Below, one piece after another: positions 9,089-50,752 of a stretch of DNA of 64,000 bases; the first letter of the stretch is position 1, and each line of letters starts with the position of its first letter. This DNA comes from a virus (taxonomy: Duplodnaviria; Heunggongvirae; Uroviricota; Caudoviricetes). The translations under genes and the position numbers were made by a program. Under the pieces are notes generated by a model. It was not told the origin of the DNA and made no database searches. It saw only the letters and a list, made by a program, of their open reading frames with translations. The stretch covers positions 13,214-77,213 of the IMG/VR virus record IMGVR_UViG_3300048998_000119. The stretch is one strand, 5' to 3'.

Positions 9089-10425
9089 TAAAAGGTGGAT
9101 CCTTTCGCCGAGCCGACCACAGAAGATCGAACAGGGAAGAGATAGTCGGTGGCGTACCTAACACCATCGGAGAAGTGTTCCGCGTTCTCAGTCTTATCGA
9201 TGAGCGCGAGATCGCTGTTTCCTTCAACCCACTTTGTTCGTTCCACGGACTTAATCGTGTCCGGGCAACCGATTGGATCGAAGAACATGTTGGTCTTGCC
9301 GTTGGCGTTCTTGAGCATACTGTTGACGGCGTTCGTCGAATCCACAATGGGAACCTGCGAGCGAGCCATGACGGTGATGCCTGCTTGTCGCAACAGAGAG
9401 AAATCGGTTTGACCCACCACGGCTGAACTCTTACGAGCGTTGCCTGACGGATCGGGATAGGCGATGATGCGGCGAATGTCGTTCTTAAACTTGGCGTTGA
9501 TGTAAGCGGCCAGCTCAGGTGTGTCCGGCGAGCCTTGCTTTTCGGCGAAGAATTGCATTTGCCCGCCTCGGACCACAAAGAAAGAAGTCGCCATACGCAT
9601 GACGTTGAAGTCGATGGCGCAATGGATTGTTTCTTCGGGTTCGGGCGGGATGATGTTTTGCACGTGGATTTGGCGATCGAACATATAGAACAGTGACGCG
9701 CCTGATTCCTTAAACAGCGCCAAGTACTCACTCGCAAAACGAATGGGATCCATTTTCTGTTTGGCCTTCTCCACTTCACGTGGATCCAGCAGAGGCGAGG
9801 CGGTGTAGTCGTGTATGTACGTCATCCACTCGTTGTCGATTTCGCGGTAGTTGCTGACTTCCTCCAGAAAGTTAAATCCTTTGGGTGTTCCAGCAAATAG
9901 TGCTCTTCCCGCTGAACGCGCACCGTACAAGTCGGCGTGCATCCAGGACCAGCGAGAAGTAATCGTAGGGTAAATCACGTTCTCCCAGTTCTCTTTCAAG
10001 TTCCTCATGGAAGACGGCTCGTCGATGACGACAAGATAGTACCCTTTACCGCGCATACGCTCGACGGCTTCATAGGATAACAGATGAAGCTCAACGTTGT
10101 TTGGGAAATAGTAACGACCCAGTGATTCCTTTTCGGATTCAACAAAGTCGCTTATGCCGAACTGATTCGACAGCAGTGGTTGATAGATGTCTCGGACCTG
10201 ATCAAAGGTCGGCGCGACGATGGCGACGTTCTTGTTCGGAACAGACGCGTCCAGCTCCATAAGCTCAAAGACAGCAGTCATAGCCACCGTGGCCGCTTCG
10301 TGACTCTTGCCCCAACCGCGACTGCAGACGGCGACCGCGAAACGGCATTTCAGATCAATGAATAGATCTCTGTAGATCTCACTCTGTGTCGGATGCAGGC
10401 TTATCTGCGGCATCTTTGTTCCCAC
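9088..10425 (-). CDS. terL: terminase large subunit
   Basis: Walker A CSRGWGKSH, Walker B YYLVVIDEP, C-terminal nuclease region AYPDPSGNARKS. Confidence 0.85.
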   Translation of the reverse strand: MGTKMPQISLHPTQSEIYRDLFIDLKCRFAVAVCSRGWGKSHEAATVAMTAVFELMELDASVPNKNVAIVAPTFDQVRDIYQPLLSNQFGISDFVESEKESLGRYYFPNNVELHLLSYEAVERMRGKGYYLVVIDEPSSMRNLKENWENVIYPTITSRWSWMHADLYGARSAGRALFAGTPKGFNFLEEVSNYREIDNEWMTYIHDYTASPLLDPREVEKAKQKMDPIRFASEYLALFKESGASLFYMFDRQIHVQNIIPPEPEETIHCAIDFNVMRMATSFFVVRGGQMQFFAEKQGSPDTPELAAYINAKFKNDIRRIIAYPDPSGNARKSSAVVGQTDFSLLRQAGITVMARSQVPIVDSTNAVNSMLKNANGKTNMFFDPIGCPDTIKSVERTKWVEGNSDLALIDKTENAEHFSDGVRYATDYLFPVRSSVVGSAKGSTF

Positions 10426-12191: not shown

Positions 12192-12486
12192 CGTTTTTCT
12201 CCAATTTATCTGCGATTTCGTTGAAGGTGAGTCCTGCTGTGTCATTCCAATGAATACACAGTCTACGCGTCTCGCTCTCCAGAAAATCTGGATACTGCAC
12301 ACACTTGGGATCAATTAGGGCACCCAACACACCGAGACAACAGAAAGAAATACATTTCTCGGCTGGAAAGCAAGCGCCCGACAGCTCAGGATCCGACACA
12401 AGCACCGCCAGCATACCCTCGCTCTGCTTGTACTCGCCCGAACGCAGGGCCGCGATCCAACGCTTCTTGAGTTCAGCTTCCATCAC
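12181..12486 (-). CDS. ALRSGEYKQ/CCLGVL family small protein, paralog A
   Basis: motifs WIAALRSGEYKQ, FCCLGVLGALIDP, FNEIADKLE. Confidence 0.55.
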   Translation of the reverse strand: MMEAELKKRWIAALRSGEYKQSEGMLAVLVSDPELSGACFPAEKCISFCCLGVLGALIDPKCVQYPDFLESETRRLCIHWNDTAGLTFNEIADKLEKNDEI

Positions 12487-12815
12487 AAGTTCTTCTCCAC
12501 ATAGTCGGCGATTTCGTCGAAAGACATTCTCTTAGCGTCGTTCATCGTCATGAACGCGTGTCCACCAAGTTCGGTCATGTCCGGATACTGTACGCGTTCG
12601 GGATTGATCAGCGCACCCAACACGCCTAAACAGCAGAACCCCACGCCCTCACACGCGGGTGCGTTGATGATCTCATCACCTTCTTTATCGACGATAAGCA
12701 TTTCTCTGGCTTGCTTATACTTGCCGGATCGCAGAGCGTCAATCCACTGCTTTTTGAGTTCCGGTGTCACTTGTACTTCTCCATCAGACTGAGGATTGAT
12801 TTGATGTCTTGCCAC
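12483..12815 (-). CDS. ALRSGEYKQ/CCLGVL family small protein, paralog B
   Basis: WIDALRSGKYKQ, FCCLGVLGALINP, FDEIADYVE; tandem with paralog A. Confidence 0.55.
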   Translation of the reverse strand: MARHQINPQSDGEVQVTPELKKQWIDALRSGKYKQAREMLIVDKEGDEIINAPACEGVGFCCLGVLGALINPERVQYPDMTELGGHAFMTMNDAKRMSFDEIADYVEKNL

Positions 12816-16156: not shown

Positions 16157-16294
16157 TGTCCTTGTATGAATTGACGAAGTGTTGCATTCACTCTGGTTTG
16201 CCAGCCGGGACCGGTGTTGCGCAGAGCGGCGAGCAAATCGGCGTCCAGTCGCAAGCTCACGGCGACTTTCGGGTTGTCCAGCTTGGGTCTACCT

Positions 16295-16501
16295 CTACCA
16301 GTCACGCAGTCGCTCTTTCTCTGCTTGAGAAACGATGCTGTAGTTCTCGAAACCTTCTCCTCCGTGGACTAAATCGTTCAGACGTTCCAGTTCGTTTTCG
16401 AGTTCCGTTGTGTCGCTGAGCGCCTTGGCTTGCAGACGAAGCTCACCCAGCTTCAGCAAGGCCTCTTCATGGGTGAGATGCTTTGTGGATTTGACGCCCA
16501 T
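16295..16501 (-). CDS. hypothetical protein (68 aa)
   Basis: ORF track. Confidence 0.35.
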   Translation of the reverse strand: MGVKSTKHLTHEEALLKLGELRLQAKALSDTTELENELERLNDLVHGGEGFENYSIVSQAEKERLRDW

Positions 16502-19113: not shown

Positions 19114-19237
19114 AAGCCACCCCCAGGCAACAGAAGCCCTCTTCTGTCCTCAGCGAGCCTTGTGCCTGCTTGTACTCACCTGACTCAAGGGCGCTCGCCC
19201 ACGCCTCTCTCCTCTCGGAGAAGCTTCCATTCAGCAT
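18911..19237 (-). CDS. ALRSGEYKQ/CCLGV family small protein, paralog C (start trimmed)
   Basis: WASALESGEYKQ, FCCLGVACDL, FREIARRIR. Confidence 0.45.
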   Translation of the reverse strand: MLNGSFSERREAWASALESGEYKQAQGSLRTEEGFCCLGVACDLFQPEGWHADQERRYMYNKHNYAMPPQAVRDFFKISQEEADYLASRNDDRESFREIARRIRDAKY

Positions 19238-19685
19238 AGACGTTGATAAATTCTTTTCTACGACTTTGGGCGTAGCGGACGGTCGCGCCGGTGCCGCTGT
19301 GAGAGTAGCCATTAAAGTTGACCAGAAGCTTTTGAGAGTCATCGACTATAGCCTTATTTCTGAGGAGTGTAAGTTTGTCGTCGTACTTCTCGCCAAACAC
19401 ACGTTCGACTTCGGCGTGGTCGCGCAGAGACGCCCAACGGAACCTGCTCTGCTTCGGCCAAGCATTTGCCTGATCCTCGTAGGGAATGTAGCAACCATAA
19501 GGTATACCCAACTCCCAGCAAGCTGTGGCGCACGCCTGATCCCAGCCCAACGCCATTCCTTGAATAACCGCCTTGGGTGTAATTTCTTTCAGATGAATCT
19601 TAGCCACCTCCACCAGAAGCTGGAAGGCCTCTTCCGAGTAACCTCCCAGATCCGGTGGACGATGACCGCTTACGCCCAGAATCAT
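19185..19685 (-). CDS. YpsA-like SLOG domain protein (DUF1273-like)
   Basis: N-terminus MILGVSGHRPPDLGGY...QGMALGWDQACATACWELGIPYGCYIPYE resembles YpsA/DUF1273. Confidence 0.5.
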   Translation of the reverse strand: MILGVSGHRPPDLGGYSEEAFQLLVEVAKIHLKEITPKAVIQGMALGWDQACATACWELGIPYGCYIPYEDQANAWPKQSRFRWASLRDHAEVERVFGEKYDDKLTLLRNKAIVDDSQKLLVNFNGYSHSGTGATVRYAQSRRKEFINVYAEWKLLREERGVGERP

Positions 19686-23171: not shown

Positions 23172-23468
23172 TCACAGCTTCTCGTCGATCCAATCAGCGA
23201 TTTCGGCGAAAGTTTTACCTTGAGCGTCATTCATATTGACGCAGGTGTTGACGGCCGAACCTTCTAATTCAGCCGGACCGTAAACATCAGTGTGAACATA
23301 CGTGCCGCTTCTGTCGGTGAACACACTTGGTTCCACAATTTCGGCCAAAACACCGAGACAGCAATGACTGACCGGAGAGTCGGTGATGTTTCGCAGCATG
23401 AACTTCGTTTGTGTGTACTCACCTGAACGGAGTGCGGCCGTCCACTTTTCTTTGATTTCTTTGTTCAT
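23172..23468 (-). CDS. ALRSGEYTQ/CCLGVL family small protein, paralog D
   Basis: WTAALRSGEYTQ, HCCLGVLAEIVEP, FAEIADWIDE. Confidence 0.5.
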   Translation of the reverse strand: MNKEIKEKWTAALRSGEYTQTKFMLRNITDSPVSHCCLGVLAEIVEPSVFTDRSGTYVHTDVYGPAELEGSAVNTCVNMNDAQGKTFAEIADWIDEKL

Positions 23469-23471
23469 TTC

Positions 23472-24443
23472 TTATTCCTCGAAGATGGTGTCGATGAGGA
23501 CGGCGAGATAGGTGCTGTCGATGCGCTGATTGGCGTCTCGATTCTGCAGAGCAGTGATGAGCTGATGCATGTACGCCACATCGACGCCCATTAGCTGTTC
23601 CTTCAACTGCACCGGATCCTCGAAATTGATGTCGCTGACTTGCCGCATCATCTTGAGAACCTGACCGGCGCTGATCCGCCAACCACGTTTGATGAACTTG
23701 CGCATGCGTAGAACAGAAGCCAGAGGATACAGACTACCGCTGTACACTAGTGTCTTGGACAGCAAACACTCCATCATTTCCGGAGTGATGATGACCTTGT
23801 CCGACGCATAGTCGTAGACGCCGGTGCAGTGCAGATAGTCGTAGTTCTTGTGGATCTGATCTGCTTCACCGTAGAACCGAATAATGATCTGCGTGCGATC
23901 CGTCAGCGTGATGGCGTTGTCCGTCATGAACACTGGCTTGTACTTGTGAGTCGGCGTCTTAACTTCATCCACCAAATCGATGATCTGATCCATGTCGTCC
24001 GACGAGGCCGAGAGTGAAGACACGAAGTCTTCCGTGGCTTGATCCGGTTGGGCCTCGAAGTACTTATACGCTTCCTGATCCACACCGGCCGTGCCCGCCG
24101 ACTTCATATAAATCAGCACACGATCTTCACTCTCGCCCGCCAGATTCAAGCGAGATTCAACTTTGACGGCGGGTTTGTACTCCACGGTGTCGGTGCCCGT
24201 CTTGGCCTGATTGAACTTCTGAACGTAGTACTCAGCCACCCGCTTAGTCATTTCGAGCGACTTGAAGTAGACGTCGTAGTCGTTGACCTTCTCGCCGAGC
24301 ATCATACTGCACACAGCGCCTCCCGTCACGAGCACCTCGTCCTTGATGTCGTGAGCCAGCGTGGGATCGTCGATAGACGCGATGAACTTGTTGAGCTTGT
24401 CGCGAATGAGCTTGCGAATAGTCCTGCGATGAAAACCTGACAT
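23472..24443 (-). CDS. tRNA nucleotidyltransferase / poly(A) polymerase family (PolyA_pol head domain) protein
   Basis: LVTGGAVCSMMLGEKVNDYDVYF matches the hhGGAVRDxLLGxxxxDhD head; FMTDNAITL resembles the RDFTINA motif. Confidence 0.6.
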   Translation of the reverse strand: MSGFHRRTIRKLIRDKLNKFIASIDDPTLAHDIKDEVLVTGGAVCSMMLGEKVNDYDVYFKSLEMTKRVAEYYVQKFNQAKTGTDTVEYKPAVKVESRLNLAGESEDRVLIYMKSAGTAGVDQEAYKYFEAQPDQATEDFVSSLSASSDDMDQIIDLVDEVKTPTHKYKPVFMTDNAITLTDRTQIIIRFYGEADQIHKNYDYLHCTGVYDYASDKVIITPEMMECLLSKTLVYSGSLYPLASVLRMRKFIKRGWRISAGQVLKMMRQVSDINFEDPVQLKEQLMGVDVAYMHQLITALQNRDANQRIDSTYLAVLIDTIFEE

Positions 24444-24457
24444 TTAGTTATCCTAAC

Positions 24458-25018
24458 TTAGTTGTTGACGATGCGGAATTCATCAGCGTAAACGGCAAAA
24501 CCGCGAGTGGCGAAAGATGACTGAAGCGACTCCAGCAGCTTGGCCTGCTTCGCCTCGGTCAACTCAGGATCGAGCGCGAGCGCGTTGATTTTCTGAATGC
24601 GCTCCTCGACCTGCGCGGCTTCCCTCTTGAGTCGTTCGGCGTGCTCCTCGTTGTTCTTGAGCAGCTTGGCGAGATTTAGCAGCACCGAGTTGTGCTCCAC
24701 AACCGTGGCTTCGTTCTGGATACCGCTGAGGGTCATTTTCTGAGTCGTCATTTTAAAGCTCCAATTGAGTTCGCGAATGAAATTCATCGCTTCGTTGTAA
24801 TCACTATCTGAGAAAGGCACTGTGCCCATCCAGTATAACTCTGCTTTGAAGAGTCCTTTTGTGGCGTTGACGTAGACTTCACCATCTTTCCAAACGCCGT
24901 CCCAATGACCGTTGATCACCCAGAAATTGATGCCGCCGTCCGGGTTCATTCCCTTGTTGCGGCACCAAAGGCTCAGCCGACCATCTTGGCCGAGCGCGAA
25001 CTGGTCAGGTAGGTACAT
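24458..25018 (-). CDS. hypothetical protein (186 aa), coiled-coil C-terminus
   Basis: ORF track; overlaps rSAM gene stop. Confidence 0.45.
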   Translation of the reverse strand: MYLPDQFALGQDGRLSLWCRNKGMNPDGGINFWVINGHWDGVWKDGEVYVNATKGLFKAELYWMGTVPFSDSDYNEAMNFIRELNWSFKMTTQKMTLSGIQNEATVVEHNSVLLNLAKLLKNNEEHAERLKREAAQVEERIQKINALALDPELTEAKQAKLLESLQSSFATRGFAVYADEFRIVNN

Positions 25019-25997
25019 GCACCTGTTCCAGACCGTGGCCTACACTGGGTTTCGCCTTGTCCGGGTTCTCCTTCATCCAGTCTTGAACGAACCACAGCTG
25101 GCCACATCCGCCCCCGATTGTATCCTGACCGGCCGGATCGAAGACACGCGTGTCGTATCCACGTTCGGCGAGTTTGTTGGCGAAATCGGTGGCCAGATCA
25201 CGCTGATGTTGATTACGGGCGGGCAGACCGTCGTTACGCTCACAGATCACAGAAATGGTGGCGTTAAAGGTGAAGTGATCATACAGATCAACAATCCGAT
25301 CTGCGTCTTCATCCGAGCTATTGCCGTCGTGGGCACAGTAGTTGAAGAACGGCTTGCGTCCGTCGCCGAGATTGTCCTTCCAGTCTTCGCCCTTCAGCGA
25401 CATTTCTTCCAGCGTCCATTTGGCCTTGAAGGGAACGAGCTTATCTCGCGCCTCATCGGTGCTCTCATGGACGGAGAACTGAAGGCCGATCGCGGGAATG
25501 TCACGACTGACCTGGATGAGCTCTTCCCACTGACCGTCGCTGATGCGTGGACCGCTGGTGCTGATGAGCAGACGTGCGTGTGGATACAGACGATAAAGCG
25601 CACGCATCGCAGGAATGAGCGCTTTCAGATTGAGAAGCGGCTCGCCCATGCTCATGAACATGATCTGCAATTTCTGCATTTGCTTTGCTCGACGCACGGC
25701 GGCAAAACCCAAAGAAGCTTCATCATTGGGAGTATCCGCCTCGCAAGAGGCAAGGATTGAATGACGAACCTGATCAACGATCTCTTCAGCCGTCAGGTTA
25801 CGAACGAAGTAGTCGCCCGCTCCGCAGAACCTGCAGCCGACCGGACACCCGCTCTGCGTCGAGCAGCAAATGACCGTTCGTTCTTCGTACGTCGGATACT
25901 TGTAGAGCACCGATTCGACCACCGCGTCCTTCTTGGTGAAGACGAACTTGGCGACGTTCTCGGCTGCGTCGTCGACGCGCTTGATGTTATCCCACAT
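25005..25997 (-). CDS. radical SAM enzyme of the RlmN/Cfr methyltransferase family, lacking the N-terminal accessory domain
   Basis: CCSTQSGCPVGCRFCGAG (resolving Cys + Cx3Cx2C), MSMGEPLLN, LISTSGP, C-terminal GGGCGQLW matching the RlmN mCys355 region. Confidence 0.65.
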   Translation of the reverse strand: MWDNIKRVDDAAENVAKFVFTKKDAVVESVLYKYPTYEERTVICCSTQSGCPVGCRFCGAGDYFVRNLTAEEIVDQVRHSILASCEADTPNDEASLGFAAVRRAKQMQKLQIMFMSMGEPLLNLKALIPAMRALYRLYPHARLLISTSGPRISDGQWEELIQVSRDIPAIGLQFSVHESTDEARDKLVPFKAKWTLEEMSLKGEDWKDNLGDGRKPFFNYCAHDGNSSDEDADRIVDLYDHFTFNATISVICERNDGLPARNQHQRDLATDFANKLAERGYDTRVFDPAGQDTIGGGCGQLWFVQDWMKENPDKAKPSVGHGLEQVHVPT

Positions 25998-26394
25998 TGG
26001 AATATCCTTTTTTAGTCATTGCGGTTTCGACACGCTCAGACCAGTCTTTGATCTTCAACAGCATCTTGGGATTGTCTCTGCAATAGAACATCAAATTCAT
26101 GACGCCTTTCCAGAGCAGATCTGTGGACGGAACAGAGCGTTCGAGTAACCAGTCACGCCACGCCTCACACTTCTTGTGCACAACGATGGCGAGTGGCTCA
26201 GTCCGCACTTGCGCGCGAGACCGTGCCCTTACACTCGCTCGGTAACCTTCGTCATTGGCATATCTGACACGTTGACGCTTACTGTCGCACTCCTTACAGT
26301 ATGAGCCTACATCCATTACGTTAGTTCGGCTCTTGTAGAATTTATCCAGCGGTAAGTTATGGCCGCAATCGATACACCGTTTTGTTTGCGGCAT
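25987..26394 (-). CDS. zinc-ribbon protein (135 aa)
   Basis: CIDCGHN...CKECDS, KKCEAW. Confidence 0.4.
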   Translation of the reverse strand: MPQTKRCIDCGHNLPLDKFYKSRTNVMDVGSYCKECDSKRQRVRYANDEGYRASVRARSRAQVRTEPLAIVVHKKCEAWRDWLLERSVPSTDLLWKGVMNLMFYCRDNPKMLLKIKDWSERVETAMTKKGYSNVG

Positions 26395-26395
26395 A

Positions 26396-26602
26396 CTACT
26401 TGCTAAACTCTTCTAATGCGTGAGTTATGGCTGAAAAGCCAAACACACAAATCATTACAAGAGAGACACCTAGCACGTCGGGCGTCAACCCTTTATTGCA
26501 CGCAGAGAGTGGTTCACCCGCCATCTGAAACATGACGAGGGTGCAGGCGACGGCCATAACTAGACATGCCCACAGTGAAATAAAGCGCATGAGAGGAATC
26601 AT
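26396..26602 (-). CDS. small membrane protein (68 aa)
   Basis: two TM helices. Confidence 0.4.
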   Translation of the reverse strand: MIPLMRFISLWACLVMAVACTLVMFQMAGEPLSACNKGLTPDVLGVSLVMICVFGFSAITHALEEFSK

Positions 26603-26681
26603 AAAATTTCCTTATTGCCCGCTGCGGGTTTTGGACACAACCTTTTTACGCTGAATCTGTATCTTCAGCGGAGTGCGCTTC

Positions 26682-27581
26682 TTAAAGGTCGATTTTGTCT
26701 CGCCAACCGATGGCTCGGGCGTGACGTGGATCATCCTTGACACCGTGCGCGAAGATACGGAACTTAAGAAGCTTGCCTTTGTAGAAATCCCGTGCATTCC
26801 AAATCTCCTTCAATTCGTCGTGGGTGAATTTACCCGGCGCGACGTTGATGATCTTTCCGTTCCAAAGAACCTTGAACTTACCCAGCATGCCCACGCCGAC
26901 TTTGTTGTCTTTGTGGGAGGATCGCTTGGCGTAACCGCGTTCGTCGGTTGTCTTCTCATTGTTATTCTGCATACGCTCGACGAAGTCAACCACTTCACCT
27001 TCGGCGTCCAGAAAACGCTTCAGCTTGTAGATGATACCTTCGTTGATTGTGGCGCGGCCCTCTTTGTAACGGCCCCACGGCGTACGCAGCATCACACCTT
27101 CGTAACCCAGATCAAGCTTCTCCTGCTCAAACTTTAGCACCTCTTCGATATTCTCGAGAGGTGTTTGTTCAACCAGTTTATACATGTCTGGATCAAGGCC
27201 GTTATGCAGCTTCGCCAGAGCGTCCAGCCGCTTCTCGTAGAACTCTTCGCGGAGCTCCGGCAGAGGATAGTCGAACAGATTGAAGGTGATGCTGCCTGGT
27301 TTATCCGCCGACATAACATGAGAGTTGGTGCGATTGTAGACGTTAAAGTCCGTCACACAACCTTCTATGAATTCACCGTCTAGCCACGGCTCGTGGTTGA
27401 ATTCTTCCTGAACCTGTTCGGAGGGAAGCTCTTTCCACGTACGAGACATGACACGATTGTCTGGACCGATTACACCGCGAATGCCATCGAGTTTGGGTGA
27501 GCCAAGCAAAGGAAACTGTAGCTTCTCCCAGTATTTGGGATAACCTGTGGGTACTTCGCTCGGCGCTAGAAGGACTCTCAT
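26682..27581 (-). CDS. ATP-dependent DNA ligase (minimal, Chlorella-virus/T7-like size)
   Basis: motif I SPKLDGIRG, motif IV EGVMLR, motif V LKR...; 299 aa. Confidence 0.75.
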   Translation of the reverse strand: MRVLLAPSEVPTGYPKYWEKLQFPLLGSPKLDGIRGVIGPDNRVMSRTWKELPSEQVQEEFNHEPWLDGEFIEGCVTDFNVYNRTNSHVMSADKPGSITFNLFDYPLPELREEFYEKRLDALAKLHNGLDPDMYKLVEQTPLENIEEVLKFEQEKLDLGYEGVMLRTPWGRYKEGRATINEGIIYKLKRFLDAEGEVVDFVERMQNNNEKTTDERGYAKRSSHKDNKVGVGMLGKFKVLWNGKIINVAPGKFTHDELKEIWNARDFYKGKLLKFRIFAHGVKDDPRHARAIGWRDKIDL

Positions 27582-32750: not shown

Positions 32751-33227
32751 TTACCCAACGTCACTCCAATCACTGACCGCAGCCAGACGCTGTTTATGCC
32801 TGAAGGTGACGTTCTCACGAACGGTCCATCCCACCTTCTCAATCCGAGTATTATACCAATTAGGTGTGGTGGGCGCTTCCACCATACACAGAGACCATGT
32901 TTCGGCGAAGGACAGACCAGATTTGGTCGAGTACTCTTCGATGCAGTAGAATTCAAACTCGTCTATGGGCCGTTGCGCAAACAACTGAGACATGGTCGTG
33001 GATGAAGACTTATACTTTCGCCAAGCGGTTTCTTCGCCGCCTTTGGTTACTCCGAGGACTCTGTATTGCTTCTTGCCGATGTAGCCGCGCTTGAGGACCA
33101 AGTCACGAATTGCATAGACGAAGCCAACCTTGCCGTCCATTCCCATTTTCTCCGGGAACACCCAGTGTCCGTTTGGATTGGACGCTTTGATGGACGGCGC
33201 TTTTGGTATATTACCCAAACTCACCAT
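32751..33227 (-). CDS. GIY-YIG homing endonuclease
   Basis: KVGFVYAIRDLVLKRGYIGKK. Confidence 0.65.
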   Translation of the reverse strand: MVSLGNIPKAPSIKASNPNGHWVFPEKMGMDGKVGFVYAIRDLVLKRGYIGKKQYRVLGVTKGGEETAWRKYKSSSTTMSQLFAQRPIDEFEFYCIEEYSTKSGLSFAETWSLCMVEAPTTPNWYNTRIEKVGWTVRENVTFRHKQRLAAVSDWSDVG

Positions 33228-38304: not shown

Positions 38305-40596
38305 CTAGACAAAGCAATATTCTGAATCCAGAACAGCCCTGATGTCCAACGTGCCGTAAACTATTTCCGACGCGTCACCCTGGATGTCCTTCATCAGATT
38401 TTGAAGTGGATCCGTCTGATACAGTTCCACAAACGTTTCTCGCACAATCCTGAACAAGTCAGGCATGTCGGCCAACAGACAACCGAAACTGTCGTGAATG
38501 GTCGTGACTGCAAACGGAGCCTTGTCCACAGTCATCGCGAGGTGAGCGGCGTCCAGAGAGTGAATACAGTTTGGACTTGCACCCGAAGCCTGCTTACCCT
38601 TTGAATGCTCAGTGTCTTCGATGAACGAAATGTTCAGCTGCAGCGTATTCTGATAGTAGCCGCTGAGCTTTCTCTCACCCAACGGAGGACCGTACTGGAT
38701 CCACCGCTTTTTGACTTTACCTTGGGTGTAGTGCTGGACGACCGGGAAGTTTGTTACGGGAACAGTCCAGCTCAAGAACCGCCCCTCCTCCTCAGCCTTA
38801 CGTCCGGCTTTCTCGAAGATCGACAGTAGCTGCATAGGCTTGGTGAGTGACAACTGAGCTGCCTCAAAGATGAGACGACCCATGTACGCACCCCACTTAT
38901 GTTCCATATACAGCAATAGTTCGATGCCGTGCTTCTTGGCGTCGTCTATCACCTGCTGTCCGAGTCCGTACGCGGTGCCGCCATACGGCAGTGTCATCAC
39001 ACCACGTTTCATCACCTTACGCCTGTCCTTGGCGCTGGTGAGTCTAGACCAGAAGACAGTAGAGGCGTCGTTGTTCAACTCCACATTGTCTTCTTTATAC
39101 GCTTTGATCTGTTCAACCAATTCCGCCCTACGGTCGCTGCTTGGTTCAGCCGCCGTGATTTGTTTCTTCAGTTCAATCAGATTGTCGATGAAGCGATTAA
39201 TCTCGTTCAGTCGCTCCTTGCTGAAGTCCGTCAGTCGGTCGACGATGATTCCCCAGACATAATCCGCCACAAAGCGATAGAGATCGCCCGGAAGCTCAAG
39301 CGGAACCAGATTCACGTGTGGCGCCGTGGTCTCGTCTCTGACCAACGCAGTCAGATGCTGTGAACCATTGTTAGAGCCGTCGATGAAACATTCCAGCGAA
39401 GATTCATAATCCGTTGGATCGCCGTGCTCAAGCGCTTTCCTCAACTCCAAACAAGCCGCCAAGAACTGCCACGGCTTATCTGCGTCCATCCACCCTTGAT
39501 TTACTTTAGGGGATTCGGCGTAAGATAAAATGATTTCAATGTTGTCTCGTGTCCAGGCTTCTCTGGCGTCGAGCGGGATTTTATCTGTCTTAAGACCATC
39601 GTCTCTGCCGGAGTTTCCGGCCCACGTAGAAGCGATGCTAATAAGTAGCCATCGGAATCCGGCCTCTCCGATAGACTTTGAATCGCTCCGGAGTAGGAGT
39701 CCGCGAGCGACGTCAGTGCCTTGTTCATGGAGATACGCTGTTGTGGGGTATTTGCGACCTCTAAAGTCATAATAATATAGATGATAAAACTCCTTGTCCA
39801 AGAAGCGTTTCGCCATACCGCTGATGGCTCGGGCTTCACGAAGTTTTGTTTGACGAGCCTGGGGGTTGCGTTGTTCCCAGATGTCGCTGAAGGCGTTTGT
39901 CTTGTTTCTCAACGCCCACAGCTGAAGTTCGTAAACCTCTTTGTTCACACGCCAACCGACTCGCTGCGCTTTGTTGATGCAGTTAAACAGAATCGGATGG
40001 GTGTCGGGCTGAACTGCGGCGAAGACTTCCTTGTTGCCGGTCTTGATCATGTAGTTGCCGGTCTCGTGCCTGGAGGCGATCCAAGGCGCGTACGCTGTTT
40101 CAGAAGGAAGCTTTTCTATGCGTTCATTAGGGATACTTTCCCAGAGAGCGATGATGCCCTCTTCGTTGTTGATCTGAATCATATATGCGTTGTGGTTCTT
40201 GTTACCTTGACCCAGCAACACCGTTAACAACTGCAGTTGTTCAAAGCTGAAGACGAAGAACGCGCCCACCTTAGCCGCCAAGGAAGAGTCGCGTTTGATC
40301 TTGTTTTTGTTCAGAATGTTGTGACCGATGGCGGCGATCACTTCTGTTAGATACACAGTCTTGTTCACACCCTTCTTCATACGGGTGTACAAGTACAAAG
40401 TAGTTATGGCTGCGTCGATACAACCCTCCAGGTCCACATCGCGCAGGAATATAAGAGGACTCTGCGGTGCGATCTCTCGCATAATGCGGTCATAGAGAAG
40501 TTGTTTCAGTTCTGATCTCATCCAAATAATATCCATGACAGAAGATCTAGACCGAAGTATAAGACTAGGAGTACGGCGACGACATACGAAGTGCAA
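38305..40596 (-). CDS. single-subunit DNA-dependent RNA polymerase (T7-like)
   Basis: motif A FIDGSNNGSQHLTAL, motif B RRKVMKRGVMTLPYGGTAYGLGQQV, motif C IHDSFGC; true start may be ATG at ~40536. Confidence 0.8.
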   Translation of the reverse strand: MHFVCRRRTPSLILRSRSSVMDIIWMRSELKQLLYDRIMREIAPQSPLIFLRDVDLEGCIDAAITTLYLYTRMKKGVNKTVYLTEVIAAIGHNILNKNKIKRDSSLAAKVGAFFVFSFEQLQLLTVLLGQGNKNHNAYMIQINNEEGIIALWESIPNERIEKLPSETAYAPWIASRHETGNYMIKTGNKEVFAAVQPDTHPILFNCINKAQRVGWRVNKEVYELQLWALRNKTNAFSDIWEQRNPQARQTKLREARAISGMAKRFLDKEFYHLYYYDFRGRKYPTTAYLHEQGTDVARGLLLRSDSKSIGEAGFRWLLISIASTWAGNSGRDDGLKTDKIPLDAREAWTRDNIEIILSYAESPKVNQGWMDADKPWQFLAACLELRKALEHGDPTDYESSLECFIDGSNNGSQHLTALVRDETTAPHVNLVPLELPGDLYRFVADYVWGIIVDRLTDFSKERLNEINRFIDNLIELKKQITAAEPSSDRRAELVEQIKAYKEDNVELNNDASTVFWSRLTSAKDRRKVMKRGVMTLPYGGTAYGLGQQVIDDAKKHGIELLLYMEHKWGAYMGRLIFEAAQLSLTKPMQLLSIFEKAGRKAEEEGRFLSWTVPVTNFPVVQHYTQGKVKKRWIQYGPPLGERKLSGYYQNTLQLNISFIEDTEHSKGKQASGASPNCIHSLDAAHLAMTVDKAPFAVTTIHDSFGCLLADMPDLFRIVRETFVELYQTDPLQNLMKDIQGDASEIVYGTLDIRAVLDSEYCFV

Positions 40597-40652: not shown

Positions 40653-40949
40653 TTATCCTATCTTATTGAGCTCACTCCAGAGCTTTTCCAATTTTGCCTG
40701 ATTCAGATCCCTCTGATCGGGCGACACTCCGGCGATGTTCTCGTCCAGAATGTCATTCACTTCTTTTTGTTTTCTGCTGATTACTTGCTGATCTTTTTTC
40801 GCGGTCCTGACCTGGGCGAGTCCGTCGGCGATGTCCAAGAAGTCTTTAAAGGGGAGCATACCTCGTAACAGAGCACTTATAAAACCGGTCAAGGAATTCT
40901 TGCGCTGCTTTTTCCGGGGACCAGAGGGCGAAGGGAATGTCGATGTCAT
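40653..40949 (-). CDS. hypothetical protein (98 aa)
   Basis: ORF track. Confidence 0.35.
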   Translation of the reverse strand: MTSTFPSPSGPRKKQRKNSLTGFISALLRGMLPFKDFLDIADGLAQVRTAKKDQQVISRKQKEVNDILDENIAGVSPDQRDLNQAKLEKLWSELNKIG

Positions 40950-41379
40950 AGACTCTCTCGATGTCGGGGTAAAGGAACGTCTCCTCCTGATGGAACAGAA
41001 GGTTGTCGACCAGCTTAAACGTCATTTCGTCCGGTTCTTCGAACGCGAAACGATACTCCATATCTCGCATGATACGATGCTCAGTTGCCTTAAAGGAATC
41101 AGCGTCCCTTTTAAGAGGCGTGATGAGATCACCCATAACAAACTCAGGAGCATCGTGCAGGAGAGCACCTTTACGATTACGAGGATACAAGTCATGAGCA
41201 TGACAGCAGTGCTCCGCCACAGAGTAATGATGGACGACGTGGTCGCCGAAACGACACTTCTTGCCGAGCATTTCCGCGACGAATTCAATGTCGTAGATCG
41301 CAGTTTCAGGCTTTGCGAAGTCGAAGATGTGATTGTTCATCATTCGTAGACCGTTGCTGAACTTGACGCTTTCTTGCAC
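40846..41379 (-). CDS. HD-domain phosphohydrolase (YfbR-like 5'-deoxynucleotidase)
   Basis: YSVAEHCCHAHDL ... ALLHDAPEFVMGDLITP; GTG start after GGAGG. Confidence 0.65.
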   Translation of the reverse strand: MQESVKFSNGLRMMNNHIFDFAKPETAIYDIEFVAEMLGKKCRFGDHVVHHYSVAEHCCHAHDLYPRNRKGALLHDAPEFVMGDLITPLKRDADSFKATEHRIMRDMEYRFAFEEPDEMTFKLVDNLLFHQEETFLYPDIERVYDIDIPFALWSPEKAAQEFLDRFYKCSVTRYAPL

Positions 41380-42582: not shown

Positions 42583-42600
42583 TTCTCCTTTTGAGGTTCT

Positions 42601-42632
42601 CTCATATAAGATACCTCTTTTTCCGCGTTTTC
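42601..42632 (-). promoter_or_regulatory. conserved 32-nt element copy 1 (minus-strand sense GAAAACGCGGAAAAAGAGGTATCTTATATGAG)
   Basis: near-identical copies at 44270-44300 and 50721-50752. Confidence 0.6.
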
Positions 42633-42859
42633 TTTCGGTGGTTTCGGCGCATACCGCTTACGCCACCGATAGGACGACTGCTGAGAATTATTGGACAAAG
42701 CTGCTGGTGGGCTTGCGACCCAGCAACGTGTCGGCCTCGTTCTGCACCTTGACGGTGTTGTAGAGTTTACCGGCAGCGTTGGCGTGTGCATCCAACATCT
42801 TCACGTCGATTTTACCCAAGTCAAGATCCTGCATACGCTCCGCCAAGAACGCGGCGACA

Positions 42860-44256: not shown

Positions 44257-44269
44257 GATGGAGTCCTTT

Positions 44270-44300
44270 CCATATAAGATACCATTATTTCCGCGTTATC
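44270..44300 (-). promoter_or_regulatory. conserved 32-nt element copy 2
   Basis: GATAACGCGGAAATAATGGTATCTTATATGGAAAG immediately 5' of the SPFH gene. Confidence 0.6.
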
Positions 44301-44604
44301 AATGATCGTAATAACCACGAGCACGTCGTCGGGCAGCTTCCAGAATTCGCTCGGCGCCCGCTTCACCCATAGCCGCATACTCATAGAGTGTCGGTTGAAT
44401 GCCGTTACTGTGAGCAGACAGCTGACTCACCGTGCCGCTGGGCTTGATGGTCTTGACGCGACCTTTGTTACAGATGGTTTGAAAGACTTTCTTCCAACCC
44501 ATTCCGTAACTGAGGCCGAACGCCATATTCTTGGCCACCTTGTCGCCACCGAAGAGGACCAAGGTGAGCGCGGCCAATTTCCAGAAGAAATTCTTCATGC
44601 TCAT
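44299..44604 (-). CDS. hypothetical membrane-associated protein (101 aa)
   Basis: ORF track. Confidence 0.35.
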   Translation of the reverse strand: MSMKNFFWKLAALTLVLFGGDKVAKNMAFGLSYGMGWKKVFQTICNKGRVKTIKPSGTVSQLSAHSNGIQPTLYEYAAMGEAGAERILEAARRRARGYYDH

Positions 44605-48164: not shown

Positions 48165-48742
48165 ATGTTCAACTCCTTGAGCTGCAGGAGACGCTTTACG
48201 ATTTGATCTTCCGTGAAACGATCGTACAGACCGTCCAGAGAAGGAGTCTCACGTCCGTCGCCCGGTTGAAAGGCGCGGGTGCTCGCCCAGGTCGGCAGCT
48301 TGTCGGCGAATTGCGTCAACAGAAGAACGGTGTCCGTGTCGACGACGATGCTGTGGATCTCCGAGGCGTGCTGATGGTACGACTCACCTTCCTTGTGCAG
48401 CATGCTGGACTCGATCGACAGCAGTGTTTCGCGCTTCCAGACGAAACCGGAGCCGCCGTTGAGCGGTGTCTCGTAGTCGAATTCTTGGAAACGCGTGTGG
48501 CGAGGATCACCCCAGCCACTTTTGTATTTGTTGTTGCGAACTTCTCCGGCCAATACCGTGGTGGAAAAATCATAACGATGATCGTGCGGCACGACGATTT
48601 CGGCGTCGGTCTTCAAGTTGTCGAAGAAGTAAGCTTTGATCGTCAGCGTATCCGAACGATGCAGACAGATGTAGTCGAGTCCTTTCGAGTGGAAGTTGCG
48701 GAAGCTGTTGGCGGCGATGGTTTCGACGTCGTCGTATCTCAT
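48161..48742 (-). CDS. putative cupin-fold / 2OG-Fe(II)-oxygenase-like protein
   Basis: VPHDHRYDF (HxD) and HQHASEIHSIV. Confidence 0.35.
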   Translation of the reverse strand: MRYDDVETIAANSFRNFHSKGLDYICLHRSDTLTIKAYFFDNLKTDAEIVVPHDHRYDFSTTVLAGEVRNNKYKSGWGDPRHTRFQEFDYETPLNGGSGFVWKRETLLSIESSMLHKEGESYHQHASEIHSIVVDTDTVLLLTQFADKLPTWASTRAFQPGDGRETPSLDGLYDRFTEDQIVKRLLQLKELNI

Positions 48743-49227
48743 TTGGCGTATCCTTTATAGTGATTGAGAAAGTTTCCGTGAAAACAATTTTCGCTGAACC
48801 CTGACGGAACGCCGTGGTCGAGAAAAAAGTAAATACGTTCGGCCGCACCCTTGGCGGTGTTGTCGAAATGGGACCACATACCGCCGAACATCCACGCGAA
48901 CTCAGATGAAATCGCATCGCTGCCTTCGGAAAAGACTGGACAGAAGTTACGTTCGCAGTAAGCACTCCAGTCTATAGTGCTGCCGGGAAAATCACTGTCG
49001 ACCGCCAGAAAACCAGCGCTGGGACCGTGACCAACTGCGCAGGCGACGGCACCACAGTTGTGCACACCACCGTTCTCGCGAGCGTATTTATTTCTGATCT
49101 CAAACTCTCGTCCCCAGAGACCATCCTCGACCACGCTGAAGTAAGAACTCATATTGAAGCTGTCGTAGTTCTCGGGAAGCTCAAAGAGATAGTCGGCGAG
49201 CGTCTTGAGGTTGCCGCGATTAACCAT
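48739..49227 (-). CDS. tandem paralog 1 of unrecognised family (CGAVACAVGHGPSAGF motif)
   Basis: start trimmed to MVNRGNLKTLADYL; shares three blocks with paralogs 2 and 3. Confidence 0.6.
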   Translation of the reverse strand: MVNRGNLKTLADYLFELPENYDSFNMSSYFSVVEDGLWGREFEIRNKYARENGGVHNCGAVACAVGHGPSAGFLAVDSDFPGSTIDWSAYCERNFCPVFSEGSDAISSEFAWMFGGMWSHFDNTAKGAAERIYFFLDHGVPSGFSENCFHGNFLNHYKGYAK

Positions 49228-49675
49228 TGTAGATCTCCACGAATGCACGATAGGAATAACCCTTGAAGACTTCCGGCACACCGTGCTCGAGATAGTAGTT
49301 GATGCGCTTGGCGGCACCATGAGGTGTGTTGTCGCAGAAAGACCAGAATGAACTGAACATCCACTCGAACTCGCGCGTGTTGTTGCCATCTTCGTCGCGC
49401 ACATCGCAGAAGAGACGATGAGTGTACACATCCCAGTGGACTTCCACGTCGTTGAGTTCATGTTCCTGAAACAAAAAACCCGCCGAAGGACCATGACCCA
49501 CAGCACAGGCCGCAGTTCCACAACGCGAGACTCCACCGTTGTTCAGTGCGTAGTCTCGTTCGTCGGCGGGAGTGTGGGCGTAGAAGAAACCCGCCATGTC
49601 GAATTCGGCGTAGTCTTCCGGCAGCGTGAGCAGGTAGTCGGCGAGCTTCTTGAGGTTGTCGCGGCGGTTCATGCG
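49220..49675 (-). CDS. tandem paralog 2 of unrecognised family
   Basis: start trimmed to MNRRDNLKKLADYL; CGTAACAVGHGPSAGF; HGAAKRINYYLEHGVP. Confidence 0.6.
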   Translation of the reverse strand, partial: RMNRRDNLKKLADYLLTLPEDYAEFDMAGFFYAHTPADERDYALNNGGVSRCGTAACAVGHGPSAGFLFQEHELNDVEVHWDVYTHRLFCDVRDEDGNNTREFEWMFSSFWSFCDNTPHGAAKRINYYLEHGVPEVFKGYSYRAFVEIYNG

Positions 49676-50695: not shown

Positions 50696-50720
50696 TATAT
50701 TTCTCCTGAGAGATGATCCT

Positions 50721-50752
50721 CTCATATAAGATACCTTATTTTCCGCGTTTTC
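50721..50752 (-). promoter_or_regulatory. conserved 32-nt element copy 3
   Basis: GAAAACGCGGAAAATAAGGTATCTTATATGAGAG; first intergenic region after the lysis cassette. Confidence 0.6.

Follow-up and report, generated by a model that had tools for sequence, protein, structure and literature searches.

A shortened RlmN/Cfr-type radical SAM gene between a DNA ligase and a Gad2-family nucleotidyltransferase in a phage genome

The phage analysed here carries a shortened version of a bacterial-type RNA-methylating radical enzyme, next to a gene of a known anti-defence type and an ordinary DNA ligase. The three genes lie within 4 kb on the minus strand of the window, the 64,000-nucleotide stretch of viral DNA that was analysed (Table 1). 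A first-pass annotation had placed them there correctly and had read them together as an RNA modification and repair module, an interpretation that is only partly supported. On balance, and with modest confidence, we take the 4-kb stretch to be the place where the replication block gives way to a variable island of accessory (counter-defence) genes and not a single functional unit, the label "counter-defence island" being given through guilt by association. Three additional genes are interspersed among the three: a 68-aa membrane ORF, a 135-aa ORF for an EndoVII-like zinc-finger protein and a 186-aa ORF (ORF186).

Table 1. Genes of the 4-kb stretch and other window genes considered with it
Feature	Position in window	Strand	Basis
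98-aa DUF8296 protein	23172..23468	-	PF26948 (precomputed); phrog_18067 1.1e-15
Gad2-family nucleotidyltransferase (NTase), class-II CCA-adding/poly(A)-polymerase-like fold	23472-24443	-	323 aa; PF26128
186-aa ORF (ORF186), coiled-coil-like C-terminus	24458..25018	-	translation
N-terminally truncated RlmN/Cfr-type radical SAM enzyme, phage-specific clade	25005..25997	-	330 aa; profile, PDB and fold matches
135-aa EndoVII/HNH-like zinc-finger protein	25987..26394	-	phrog_1035 endonuclease VII 1.4e-10; phrog_2255 HNH 1.1e-6
68-aa hydrophobic ORF, variable slot	26396..26602	-	ORF list and translation
Minimal ATP-dependent DNA ligase, Chlorella-virus type	26682..27581	-	299 aa; PF01068, phrog_114, PBCV-1
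YpsA-like SLOG protein	19185-19685	-	PF06908 1.2e-6, 29.1 bits vs cut-off 27.7
HD-domain 5'-deoxynucleotidase (YfbR-like)	40846..41379	-	phrog_318 5.7e-34; PF12917 8.6e-5, below cut-off

The description of the radical SAM protein as a truncated RlmN/Cfr relative with a full set of cysteines is borne out. Its best NCBIfam match is the RlmN model TIGR00048 (E 1.5e-27), with the Cfr models next, and E. coli RlmN is its top PDB sequence match (E 1.7e-16). The AF2 model (pLDDT 88) gives the same answer, the top 11 Foldseek matches all being RlmN or Cfr (E 1e-18 to 1e-12, TM 0.56-0.69); neither profile nor fold searches placed a family other than RlmN/Cfr first. C44 pairs with C118 of E. coli RlmN, C51/C55/C58 with C125/C129/C132, and C298, within GGGCGQ, with C355, and all five are invariant among 35-37 homologues. 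Identity to RlmN/Cfr is 22-35%, and the TIGR00048 score is 96.5 bits against a cut-off of 290. The protein is truly RlmN/Cfr-like, yet its scores are far below the cut-offs of both.

The match begins only at position 71 of the RlmN model (around residue 93 when aligned to the PDB sequence), so that the protein lacks the N-terminal HhH2 domain, as had been proposed for the RNA-binding extension. This domain is described as crucial to rRNA binding (PMC13001441). There are other differences: in the stem-binding arginine pair of Cfr (R184/R185), alanine takes the place of the first residue and the second varies, a conserved W/F-rich tail replaces the basic one at the C-terminus, and the β6 motif "IPWNP" reads "VICERN". 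Proteins of the clade are acidic, with pI 4.8-6.2 and a net charge averaging -9, where E. coli RlmN has -1. The residues of the nucleotide pocket, on the other hand, are retained, Cfr Y97, R249, Y252 and K250 corresponding to Y34, R214, F217 and K215.

All elements required for RlmN/Cfr chemistry are thus present, and the reaction is probably adenine C-methylation. By homology, one SAM would methylate Cys298, and a second would be cleaved by the [4Fe-4S] cluster held by Cys51/55/58, yielding a 5'-deoxyadenosyl radical. This radical would take a hydrogen from methyl-Cys298, whereupon the resulting methylene radical would attack an sp2 carbon of adenine, C2 or C8, and Cys44 would resolve the covalent adduct.

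What does the enzyme act on? The canonical RlmN pair (A2503 of naked 23S rRNA and A37 of host tRNA) is most likely not the target, because the RNA-docking domain is missing and the hosts of such phages already have RlmN. With neither tRNA nor NAD genes in the window, the substrate must therefore be supplied by the host or be phage DNA or RNA. There is a nearly even chance that the enzyme modifies an adenine exposed in a loop or in single-stranded RNA, such as that of a host or phage tRNA. An rRNA or tRNA target is plausible from the homology, but is weakened by the loss of the RNA-binding domain and by an association with NAD genes in other phages. An adenine nucleotide or a molecule related to NAD+ or ADP-ribose is a less probable target, and phage DNA a distinctly improbable one. 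Whatever the target, the gene would be a dispensable, horizontally mobile accessory that favours infection when the host is in some particular condition or has some particular defence.

For the nucleotidyltransferase, the earlier assignment to the CCA-adding type holds for the fold and the catalytic carboxylates but not for the family. Its AF2 model (pLDDT 80) retrieves only CCA-adding, A-adding or PAP I enzymes among the top 22 Foldseek matches. Residues 41-57 read GGAVCSMMLGEKVNDYD, and G41, G42, D55, D57 and E106, which include a GG…DxD motif, are invariant in 42 homologues, so that the catalytic aspartates are in place. A Pfam profile search, however, found no match to PF01743, and the precomputed Pfam assignment is "Gad2" (Gabija anti-defence 2). 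Comparison with the experimentally verified Gad2 of Brevibacillus gave a probability of 99.1% and E 1.1e-18 by hhalign, and 3e-14 (8e-5 for motif A) by BLASTP; phrog_4400 matches at 3.8e-59. The gene is a conserved Gad2-family member of the phage lineage. Founding Gad2 members neutralise Gabija defence (bioRxiv 10.1101/2023.05.01.538930), by a mode of action that is not established (PMC12904381). Their action is presumably enzymatic, with a template-independent active site that resembles those of CCA-adding enzymes and poly(A) polymerases and is made up of the DxD and a third carboxylate. An anti-Gabija role here would be an extrapolation from Gad2 proteins with which this one shares only 25-30% identity across some 150 residues; those proteins also have a further C-terminal domain, of roughly 200 aa, which this protein lacks.

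The ligase is, as had been suggested, a minimal ATP-dependent enzyme. PF01068 matches above its cut-off (30.6 bits vs 26.2), phrog_114 at 1.6e-50, and the PBCV-1 DNA ligase (1p8l) over its full length (residues 19-296, E 2.2e-44); the KLDG motif is at K30. The gene is the final one of a replication block comprising RNAP, polA, exonuclease, primase/helicase, class II RNR and ligase, and its product is the replicative nick-sealing DNA ligase of the phage.

Comparison with two relatives, L171 and L172, suggests how the arrangement arose. L171 is syntenic from polA to the ligase (63% identical), and its ligase is directly followed by a Gad2-like gene, with neither a radical SAM nor an EndoVII-like gene in between; Tad3 (PF25185) lies 1 kb past the Gad2-like gene. 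A remnant of the radical SAM gene, a 71-aa N-terminal piece that is 83% identical and ends at a stop codon, is found elsewhere in the L171 genome. L172 likewise lacks the radical SAM gene, and in it an ORF186 homologue, 49% identical, lies directly upstream of the Gad2-like gene. The EndoVII/HNH-like gene and the stand-alone radical SAM gene thus appear to be an insertion into a variable slot, a cassette gained between ligase and nucleotidyltransferase. The EndoVII-like gene is possibly the homing-endonuclease-type mobility gene of this cassette; in ANB28 and at several further loci, too, EndoVII/HNH genes are found close to the radical SAM gene. In this phage, the last 11 nt of the EndoVII-like gene are shared with the start of the radical SAM gene, whose stop end in turn shares 14 nt with ORF186; a gap of 14 nt then leads to the Gad2-like gene. 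Because these overlaps show co-transcription and translational coupling, a local functional tie is possible.

The radical SAM protein is a member of a large, hitherto unstudied phage family that is often found beside NAD-rescue genes. Its homologues number 5637, of which the best 120 share 64-76% identity with it and have lengths of 309-337 aa, and clade members (55-76% identical) are spread over about 60 unrelated genomic contexts. Salmonella phage Arash, Stenotrophomonas phage ANB28 and Vibrio phage 249E41-1 are isolates that carry the gene. The NAD- and ADP-ribose-related genes, tRNA genes and other neighbours counted below fit an accessory, counter-defence setting of the gene. When all window proteins were compared by tblastn with 86 loci bearing the radical SAM gene, which represent about 60 contexts with almost no other genes in common, that gene was found in all 86, a ligase relative in 2, and the nucleotidyltransferase, within 10 kb, in none.

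These counts bear directly on the module reading, in which the three enzymes jointly maintain or repair host tRNA or rRNA attacked by anticodon nucleases or CCA-trimming toxins, one methylating it (m2A/m8A), one adding CCA back and one sealing nicks. The RlmN/Cfr homology, the CCA-adding-like fold and the co-oriented, partly overlapping genes would fit, as would the tRNA genes that 24 of 60 loci have within 10 kb of the radical SAM gene and the RNA ligase and Thg1 genes near it in other phages (S21 and rIIA/B are further neighbours). The lack of co-occurrence, the Gad2 family of one enzyme, the replication-block position of the PBCV-1-type ligase, syntenic in relatives without the radical SAM gene, and the absence of tRNA genes from the window speak against it and make it highly improbable. 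Cfr-like resistance, whereby ribosomes would become insensitive to peptidyl-transferase-centre antibiotics during infection, is the least credible proposal. The Cfr models do match (E about 1e-20 to 1e-22) and a Cfr structure is among the fold matches, but the scores are 73-80 bits against cut-offs of 530-550, the fold is nearer to RlmN and the rRNA-docking domain is missing. RlmN and Cfr, moreover, act on naked 23S rRNA and not on assembled ribosomes (PMC13001441), so that a lytic phage would have little to gain.

A stronger, though still unlikely, competitor to the junction reading is an enzyme without any RNA substrate, acting on an adenine- or pyridinium-containing small molecule connected with NAD+ metabolism or with immune signals derived from NAD (candidates being ATP, NAD+, NMN, ADP-ribose and a cyclic ADPR-type signal), as chemical counter-defence alongside phage NAD+ reconstitution genes. 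NAD+ salvage genes are the most frequent neighbours in other genomes: of 62 independent contexts, 10 have NAMPT no more than 1.5 kb away, 14 have an NAD-synthesis gene within 3 kb, and 20 have within 10 kb a gene related to NAD or ADP-ribose (NAMPT, NMNAT-Nudix, NadE, NADAR, Macro). Across 297 neighbour proteins, the leading Pfam families are NUDIX, NAPRTase/NAMPT_N, CTP_transf_like, isochorismatase and NadA, and the order NMNAT-Nudix, NAMPT, radical SAM is kept where the remaining flanking genes are non-homologous. NAD genes were also adjacent in all three further contexts inspected, two with close homologues and one with a radical SAM-Nudix fusion (P0262) that is directly followed by NAMPT and an NMNAT without its usual Nudix domain. 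A shorter RlmN-core-like radical SAM protein without the two mechanistic cysteines occurs inside NMNAT-NAMPT operons, and the acidic clade lacks both RNA-binding domain and stem-binding arginine. Nevertheless, about three quarters of the contexts, including this window, have no NAD gene nearby; when 80 NAMPT loci are taken as the starting point, only 6-7 include an RlmN-related radical SAM gene, which comes about 16th in the ranking of neighbour families; the linkage could stem from both genes residing in the hypervariable accessory regions that large phages have; and the Cfr contacts to flanking RNA nucleotides (Y97, R249, Y252) are conserved. A small-molecule substrate is not known for any RlmN/Cfr-family member, which also counts against this proposal. 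Methylation of adenine in phage DNA, or of dATP before incorporation, giving 2-methyl- or 8-methyl-deoxyadenosine as a nuclease shield, is about as doubtful as the repair module. The gene sits among DNA-metabolism genes here, the clade has lost RNA-specific docking elements, and neighbours elsewhere occasionally include a 5-hmdU DNA kinase, DNA methylase, dCMP deaminase or adenylosuccinate-synthetase-like protein. P0375, a distantly related, truncated RlmN-like protein with a fused dGTPase-type HD domain, recalls the dNTP-pool editing of modified-base phages, but falls in another branch that is closer to canonical RlmN (it scores 209 bits with TIGR00048). A conserved link to DNA-modification genes was not found, a C2 methyl would be expected to crowd the A:T pair, and m2dA or m8dA genomes have no known precedent.

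No family match was found for the 68-aa ORF (Pfam and PHROG profiles) or for ORF186 (Pfam, PHROG and NCBIfam). A search of 5.8 billion proteins returned no ORF186 homologue; the sole one is that of L172, and ORF186 therefore seems to travel with the Gad2-like gene and not with the radical SAM gene. The DUF8296 protein is one of several window paralogues (paralogous repeats D8/D11/D20). The YpsA-like SLOG and HD 5'-nucleotidase genes reported earlier are both present. The former has homologues in L171 and L172, as a conserved lineage gene, and no evidence was found of a link to the radical SAM gene. The HD 5'-deoxynucleotidase gene lies 15 kb off, past the RNAP gene, and its product would serve in nucleotide metabolism.

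The radical SAM protein appears to represent a new phage-specific, domain-reduced branch of the RlmN/Cfr family. RlmN is a dual-specificity radical SAM methyltransferase that makes m2A2503 in 23S rRNA and m2A37 in tRNA, while Cfr is the 23S rRNA m8A2503 methyltransferase; both are textbook cases, of unusual methylation by radicals and of multidrug resistance. The assignment to this family made in the first-pass annotation is upheld by HMM searches, in which RlmN TIGR00048 leads the NCBIfam matches (E 1.5e-27), ahead of further RlmN and Cfr models; RlmN and Cfr are also the best matches among PDB sequences. With the AlphaFold model (pLDDT 88), RlmN and Cfr take all of the top 11 Foldseek places (E 9e-19 to 1e-12, TM 0.56–0.69), and other radical SAM enzymes follow, after a large gap, only at about E 1e-6. 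Like RlmN (TIGR00048; 3RF9, 5HR7), the protein combines the radical SAM TIM-barrel core and its β' extension with the motifs GEP and S-x-H. It also has the CX3CX2C motif of the [4Fe-4S] cluster and both mechanistic cysteines. C51, C55 and C58 correspond to RlmN C125, C129 and C132 and to Cfr C112, C116 and C119, C298 (in GGGCGQ) corresponds to the methyl carrier C355 of RlmN, and C44 to its resolving cysteine C118. Variants that lack this resolving cysteine, RlmN C118A and Cfr C105A, stall as covalent adducts with their substrate. The cysteine complement read from the sequence earlier is thus complete, all five residues being aligned to RlmN and invariant in the clade, that is, in the phage-specific truncated family to which the protein belongs. 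Given the five cysteines, the fold and the HMM matches, the RlmN/Cfr methyl-cysteine radical mechanism has very probably been retained. QueE, RNR activase and viperin were ruled out, with HMM E values of 1e-3 or worse and fold E values of at least 1e-6, compared to 1e-27 and 1e-18 for RlmN.

The protein is not a canonical member of either family. It scores 96.5 bits against a TIGR00048 equivalog cut-off of 290, a third of what is required for RlmN, and 72.9–80.4 bits against Cfr cut-offs of 530–550 (TIGR04432, NF000424), a seventh. In the alignments, position 71 of TIGR00048, or residue ~93 of RlmN, comes first, and the protein starts at the β' extension. The N-terminal RNA-binding extension, already noted as missing, is in fact the whole HhH2 domain of ~70–90 aa, an accessory domain for docking rRNA or tRNA that the paper on the Cfr–rRNA structure (PMC13001441) regards as crucial for binding rRNA. 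Identity to RlmN is 22–28%. In the clade, the basic C-terminal tail of RlmN is swapped for a conserved W/F-rich tail, the β6 motif 'IPWNP' has become 'VICERN', and C221, H223 and C252 are new invariant residues; the proteins are acidic (pI 4.8–6.2), with a mean charge of -9, versus -1 for E. coli RlmN. The window enzyme is furthermore phage-borne, mobile and dispensable, unlike RlmN. Compared to Cfr, which also has the N-terminal domain, the fold score is lower than for RlmN (TM 0.56, E 1e-12). The RNA contacts of Cfr (PMC13001441) were placed onto an alignment with the clade; the Cfr sequence used for this matched annotated plasmid cfr genes at 100% identity. The surroundings of the flipped nucleotide are preserved, with Y34, R214, K215 and F217 in the window protein as the counterparts of Cfr Y97, R249, K250 and Y252. 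At the stem-binding pair (Cfr Arg184/Arg185), the clade has Ala in the first position and varies in the second.

Homologues of the radical SAM protein number 5637 at E values up to 1e-10, and the best 120 of these 5637 are 64–76% identical and 309–337 aa long. Among the 50%-identity clusters of a library, about 73 representatives score 1e-30 or better, and canonical RlmN proteins come in only at about 1e-20. Deposited carriers, in which the clade can be tested in isolated phages, include Stenotrophomonas phages ANB28 and BUCTxx99, Xanthomonas phage JGB6, Salmonella phage Arash, Aeromonas phage Ahp1 and several Vibrio phages of 129–139 kb. The orthologues in BUCTxx99 (OR529408.1) and JGB6 (OQ436456.1) carry the label 'prohibitin family / SPFH Band 7 protein', which looks like a mis-annotation. 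The sole other window gene common to the Arash locus encodes a DUF8224/phrog_1735 protein that is 37% identical over 684 aa to the Arash 'structural protein' gp141 (L002:3966-5972, L002 being a compared viral locus); the gp141 gene is 3 kb from the radical SAM gene in Arash, and its window counterpart is 9 kb away.

The nucleotidyltransferase (NTase), for its part, appears to be a new and shorter addition to Gad2, an anti-defence family already known. It had been described as a CCA-adding-type head, which is correct at the level of fold; the family is a different one. No Pfam family matches at E values up to 10, including PF01743, which distinguishes it from class II CCA-adding enzymes and PAP I (E. 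coli poly(A) polymerase I); no NCBIfam model and no PDB sequence matches, and the sole sequence-library match is the unannotated phrog_4400. There are 2583 homologues in a search of 5.8 billion proteins, mostly on 60–86-kb contigs, and PF26128 ('Gad2') is the precomputed Pfam match both for the exact protein and for all 120 homologues listed. Gad2, or Gabija anti-defence 2, comes from Bacillus SPbeta-like phages: SPbetaL7 with Gad2 knocked out becomes Gabija-sensitive, a Brevibacillus homologue restores resistance, and AlphaFold predicts a nucleotidyltransferase domain (bioRxiv 10.1101/2023.05.01.538930). Against the verified Brevibacillus laterosporus Gad2 sequence, taken from Supplementary Table 10 of that study (bioRxiv 10.1101/2023.05.01.538930), a 42-sequence NTase profile gave an hhalign probability of 99.1% (E 1.1e-18, 105 columns), and BLASTP gave 3e-14, with the GG…NDxDVYF motif A aligned separately (8e-5). 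Like Gad2 of SPbetaL7 (ORF_159) and B. laterosporus, the window protein has this motif and the LYPxxSxLRxxK…G…IS core, and is a predicted, phage-borne nucleotidyltransferase in a variable anti-defence locus. Identity, however, is only 25–30%, and the alignment spans only Gad2 residues ~29–193; at 323 aa versus 394–400 aa, the protein is without the C-terminal half of Gad2, and it has a 50-residue acidic, low-confidence insert (residues 115–164). It comes from a metagenomic phage, and the rest of its subfamily is found in phages of Gram-negative bacteria. Because the protein is shorter and lacks the C-terminal half, anti-Gabija activity would be an extrapolation from Gad2, the mechanism of which is still not known (PMC12904381).

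The likeness to CCA-adding enzymes is of interest in this respect, as the fold may provide a mechanistic lead for Gad2. With the AlphaFold model (pLDDT 80), the top 22 Foldseek matches in the PDB are all class-II CCA-adding enzymes, A-adding enzymes or PAP I (probability 0.94–1.0, E 8e-5 to 1e-2), at TM scores of only 0.30–0.39. The head-neck-body architecture and motif A (GGxxxxxxxGxxxxDxD) are shared with these enzymes (5HC9, 3H37, 3AQM, 1VFG). G41, G42, D55, D57 and E106 are invariant, making up the GG…DxD of motif A and a third carboxylate, and the catalytic aspartates on which the earlier description depended (D55 and D57) are thereby conserved among the homologues. Against the single E. 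coli CCA sequence, the NTase profile aligned in motif A only (hhalign). In a comparison made by eye rather than by rigorous alignment, the helix that may correspond to the nucleotide-templating motif D of CCA-adding enzymes (EDxxR) reads GSLYPLASVLRMRKF; it is without E-D…R and appears to have LYPLA instead. Gad2-family NTases in other phages are labelled 'tRNA nucleotidyltransferase' or 'pcnB', and such labels within phrog_4400 should be reconsidered as Gad2-family.

The ligase, to judge from its sequence, is the DNA ligase of the phage, of the minimal ATP-dependent PBCV-1 type, and nothing indicates a connection to RNA. It matches PF01068 above threshold and phrog_114 at 1.6e-50, has K30 in KLDG, a KxDG adenylation motif, and matches the OB domain PF14743 at 17.2 bits, below the cut-off. 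The DNA ligase of the Chlorella virus PBCV-1 aligns end-to-end (E 2e-44, residues 19–296) and agrees in size, motif and domains (299 vs 298 aa, KxDG motif, NTase and OB domains only), without notable difference; the window protein looks like an ordinary member of its family. This full-length match rules out an RNA ligase. A homologue is found at the same position in L171, a related 72-kb contig (63% identical).

Features of the window, with the genes from the RNA polymerase to the DUF8296 protein in transcription order
Feature	Length	Coordinates	Strand	Remark
T7-like single-subunit RNA polymerase		38305-40596		replication block, first
Family A DNA polymerase				replication block
5'-3' exonuclease				replication block
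SegE-type GIY-YIG endonuclease		32751-33227		replication block; homing endonuclease
Primase/helicase				replication block
Class II ribonucleotide reductase				replication block
Ligase	299 aa	26682-27581	minus	replication block, last
Hydrophobic ORF	68 aa	26396-26602	minus	
Zinc-finger protein	135 aa	25987-26394	minus	EndoVII-like
Radical SAM protein	330 aa	25005-25997	minus	
ORF186	186 aa	24458-25018	minus	
Nucleotidyltransferase	323 aa	23472-24443	minus	Gad2-like
DUF8296 protein	98 aa	23172-23468	minus	PF26948
DUF8296 paralogue		~18.9-19.2 kb		early region
DUF8296 paralogue		12287-12737		early region
DUF8224/phrog_1735 protein	650 aa	14204-16156		
Tandem units D1-D3		48739-50151	minus	three units, ~465 bp apart
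ORF call within D1-D3	265 aa	48739-49536		
37-nt element, copy	37 nt	42599-42635		5' end of a minus-strand gene
37-nt element, copy	37 nt	44267-44303		5' end of a minus-strand gene
37-nt element, copy	37 nt	50719-50755		5' end of a minus-strand gene

The genes from the ligase to the DUF8296 protein sit within a long minus-strand gene run, and since neighbours from 27581 to 23172 overlap or are only a few bases apart, they are co-transcribed. PHROG and Pfam scans show a replication block at the upstream side, in transcription order, with the ligase as its last gene. The SegE-type gene within this block, between the exonuclease and primase/helicase genes, is found at the same place in L171 (68% identical). 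A scan of 22.5–29.5 kb for sigma-70 promoters gave no matches above chance, but is uninformative, because the phage has its own T7-like RNA polymerase, which is ~32% identical to those of roseophages DSS3_VP1 and PM1. The source is a 77-kb metagenomic phage, and there is no near-identical relative of the window DNA among deposited phages.

The L171 contig is syntenic with the window from polA to the ligase, and its Gad2-like gene then follows directly. About 1 kb past this gene, at 9514–10417, it has an AAA_33 kinase and a homologue of Tad3 (Thoeris anti-defence, PF25185), both missing in the window, and 7 kb further on (16238–16450) the radical SAM gene survives only as an N-terminal stump of 71 codons, 83% identical and with a stop codon at its end. 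In L172, another relative of the window phage, a homologue of ORF186 is found immediately before the Gad2-like gene and the radical SAM gene is absent; the 5.8-billion-protein search found no ORF186 homologues. From these comparisons, the ligase and ORF186/Gad2-like genes are fixed in the lineage and the surrounding space is a variable accessory slot, into which the EndoVII-like and radical SAM genes have been inserted as cargo. Other phages, too, have EndoVII/HNH-type genes beside the radical SAM gene, which would fit mobility of this gene. The Tad3 and AAA_33 genes of L171, together with the radical SAM remnant, suggest a rapid turnover of accessory genes in the region.

The company that the clade keeps elsewhere was followed in 86 radical SAM loci (80 from IMG/VR and six others), representing about 60 contexts with almost no common flanking genes. 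The clade is statistically associated with NAD+ salvage and ADP-ribose genes. NAMPT is located within 1.5 kb of the radical SAM gene in 10 of 62 independent contexts, an NAD-synthesis gene within 3 kb in 14, and an NAD- or ADP-ribose-related gene within 10 kb in 20. When flanking ORFs were clustered, the two commonest families were bifunctional NMNAT-Nudix and NAMPT, and the order NMNAT-Nudix, NAMPT, radical SAM repeats in loci with otherwise unrelated genes. This commonest neighbour set, which is absent from the window, constitutes phage NAD+ reconstitution pathway 2 (NadV/NatV in Vibrio phage KVP40). A Pfam scan of the proteins encoded within 3 kb in one locus for each context, 297 in all, yielded NUDIX (11), NAPRTase (9), NAMPT_N (8), CTP_transf_like (5), isochorismatase (4) and NadA (2), as well as NAD synthase and NADAR. 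NAD genes also adjoin in three out of three further contexts looked up by exact protein. Seen from the NAMPT side, NMNAT-Nudix is present in 55 of 80 loci and an RlmN-related radical SAM gene in only 6–7, four or five of which belong to a shorter sister family, inside the operon, without the two mechanistic cysteines. These numbers, and the fact that most radical SAM loci are without NAD genes, rule out an obligatory radical SAM–NAMPT module. Members of the sister family (L120:11398-12222 and L140:8836-9696; also in loci L108 and L113) are 274–286 aa long, match TIGR00048 at 1e-18 to 1e-20, are without the C-terminal GGGCGQ motif, and sit between or right after NMNAT-Nudix and NAMPT in phage NAD+ salvage operons. 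The fusion protein P0262 (L175:2043-3449), from one of the three further contexts, joins the radical SAM protein to a MutT-like Nudix domain and is followed by NAMPT and an NMNAT without the usual Nudix domain; in P0375 (759 aa), a more canonical truncated RlmN is fused to a dGTPase-type HD domain. The literature search turned up no paper that describes truncated RlmN in phages or places a radical SAM enzyme within NAD reconstitution operons, nor any published NAD+ reconstitution pathway with a radical SAM enzyme.

What, then, does the enzyme methylate? It would be expected to C-methylate an adenine in the manner of RlmN. The isolated clade phages infect Gammaproteobacteria that already have RlmN. 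For this reason, and because the docking elements are gone and RlmN and Cfr act on naked rRNA (PMC13001441), its target presumably differs from the canonical RlmN/Cfr sites. Identities of 55–76% across unrelated phages, despite the lost RNA-docking domain, point to strong selection for some conserved target, and the database label '23S rRNA (adenine2503-C2)-methyltransferase' is probably wrong in detail for the clade. A literature search found no description of the target of this phage branch. An exposed RNA adenine ranks first among the candidates, ahead of, in second place, an NAD-linked nucleotide or metabolite and, in third, phage DNA. The second of these would mean that the truncated clade has moved from RNA to an NAD+-linked, nucleotide-level substrate, where methyl-Cys radical chemistry would serve for adenine or pyridinium C-methylation of ATP, NAD+, NMN, ADP-ribose or an NAD-derived immune signal, thus blunting NAD-depleting or ADPR-signalling defences. 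This is rather improbable. It is favored by the position of the clade next to the NAMPT and NMNAT-Nudix NAD+ reconstitution enzymes, including the one Nudix-fused case; the window itself has no NAD genes. If true, RlmN/Cfr chemistry would have its first small-molecule substrate, and anti-defence enzymes would gain a new class. A Cfr-like role in resistance is unlikely. The window protein shares the mechanism class and cysteine set of Cfr (TIGR04432/NF000424; 9P0P), but the equivalents of W101, R184 and H286 are missing.

The first-pass annotation had combined the three genes into a module for RNA modification and repair. The underlying gene observations were accurate, every quoted motif being found in the gene concerned, and elsewhere, 24 of 60 loci have tRNA genes within 10 kb, at times on both sides of the radical SAM gene, and further contexts include RNA ligases, Thg1, ribosomal protein S21 and rIIA/B. 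The module as such is unlikely. In a tblastn search of every window protein against the 86 radical SAM loci, the radical SAM protein was found in all 86, the ligase in two and the Gad2-like NTase nowhere. These genes do not make up a conserved module. In the 64-kb window, tRNA and Rfam scans gave no tRNA genes or Rfam matches, so a local tRNA substrate is not encoded there. The genomic company of the clade instead suggests a role outside classical rRNA/tRNA maintenance, probably an accessory function in counter-defence or host takeover. Its siting by counter-defence genes (NAD+ reconstitution, NADAR and Macro; Gad2 in the window), together with the Nudix fusion, makes this a candidate for a new activity in anti-defence or host takeover. 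Phage-encoded tmRNA genes accompany the radical SAM gene at up to 8 kb, along with tRNA clusters, in three viral contigs that are unrelated (L008:2800-3124, L052:12483-12858 and L059:4884-5227).

Several small elements recur within the window. DUF8296 paralogues (repeat families D8, D11 and D20) are scattered in the early region, and relative L172 also has three copies. The tandem paralogous units of families D1-D3 are 65–79% identical in DNA, and the 265-aa ORF called there may join two fused copies of the unit. The three copies of the 37-nt element are 76–95% identical, the reverse complement reading AAAGAAAACGCGGAAA…AGGTATCTTATATG, and look like a shared leader/RBS, possibly a phage promoter.
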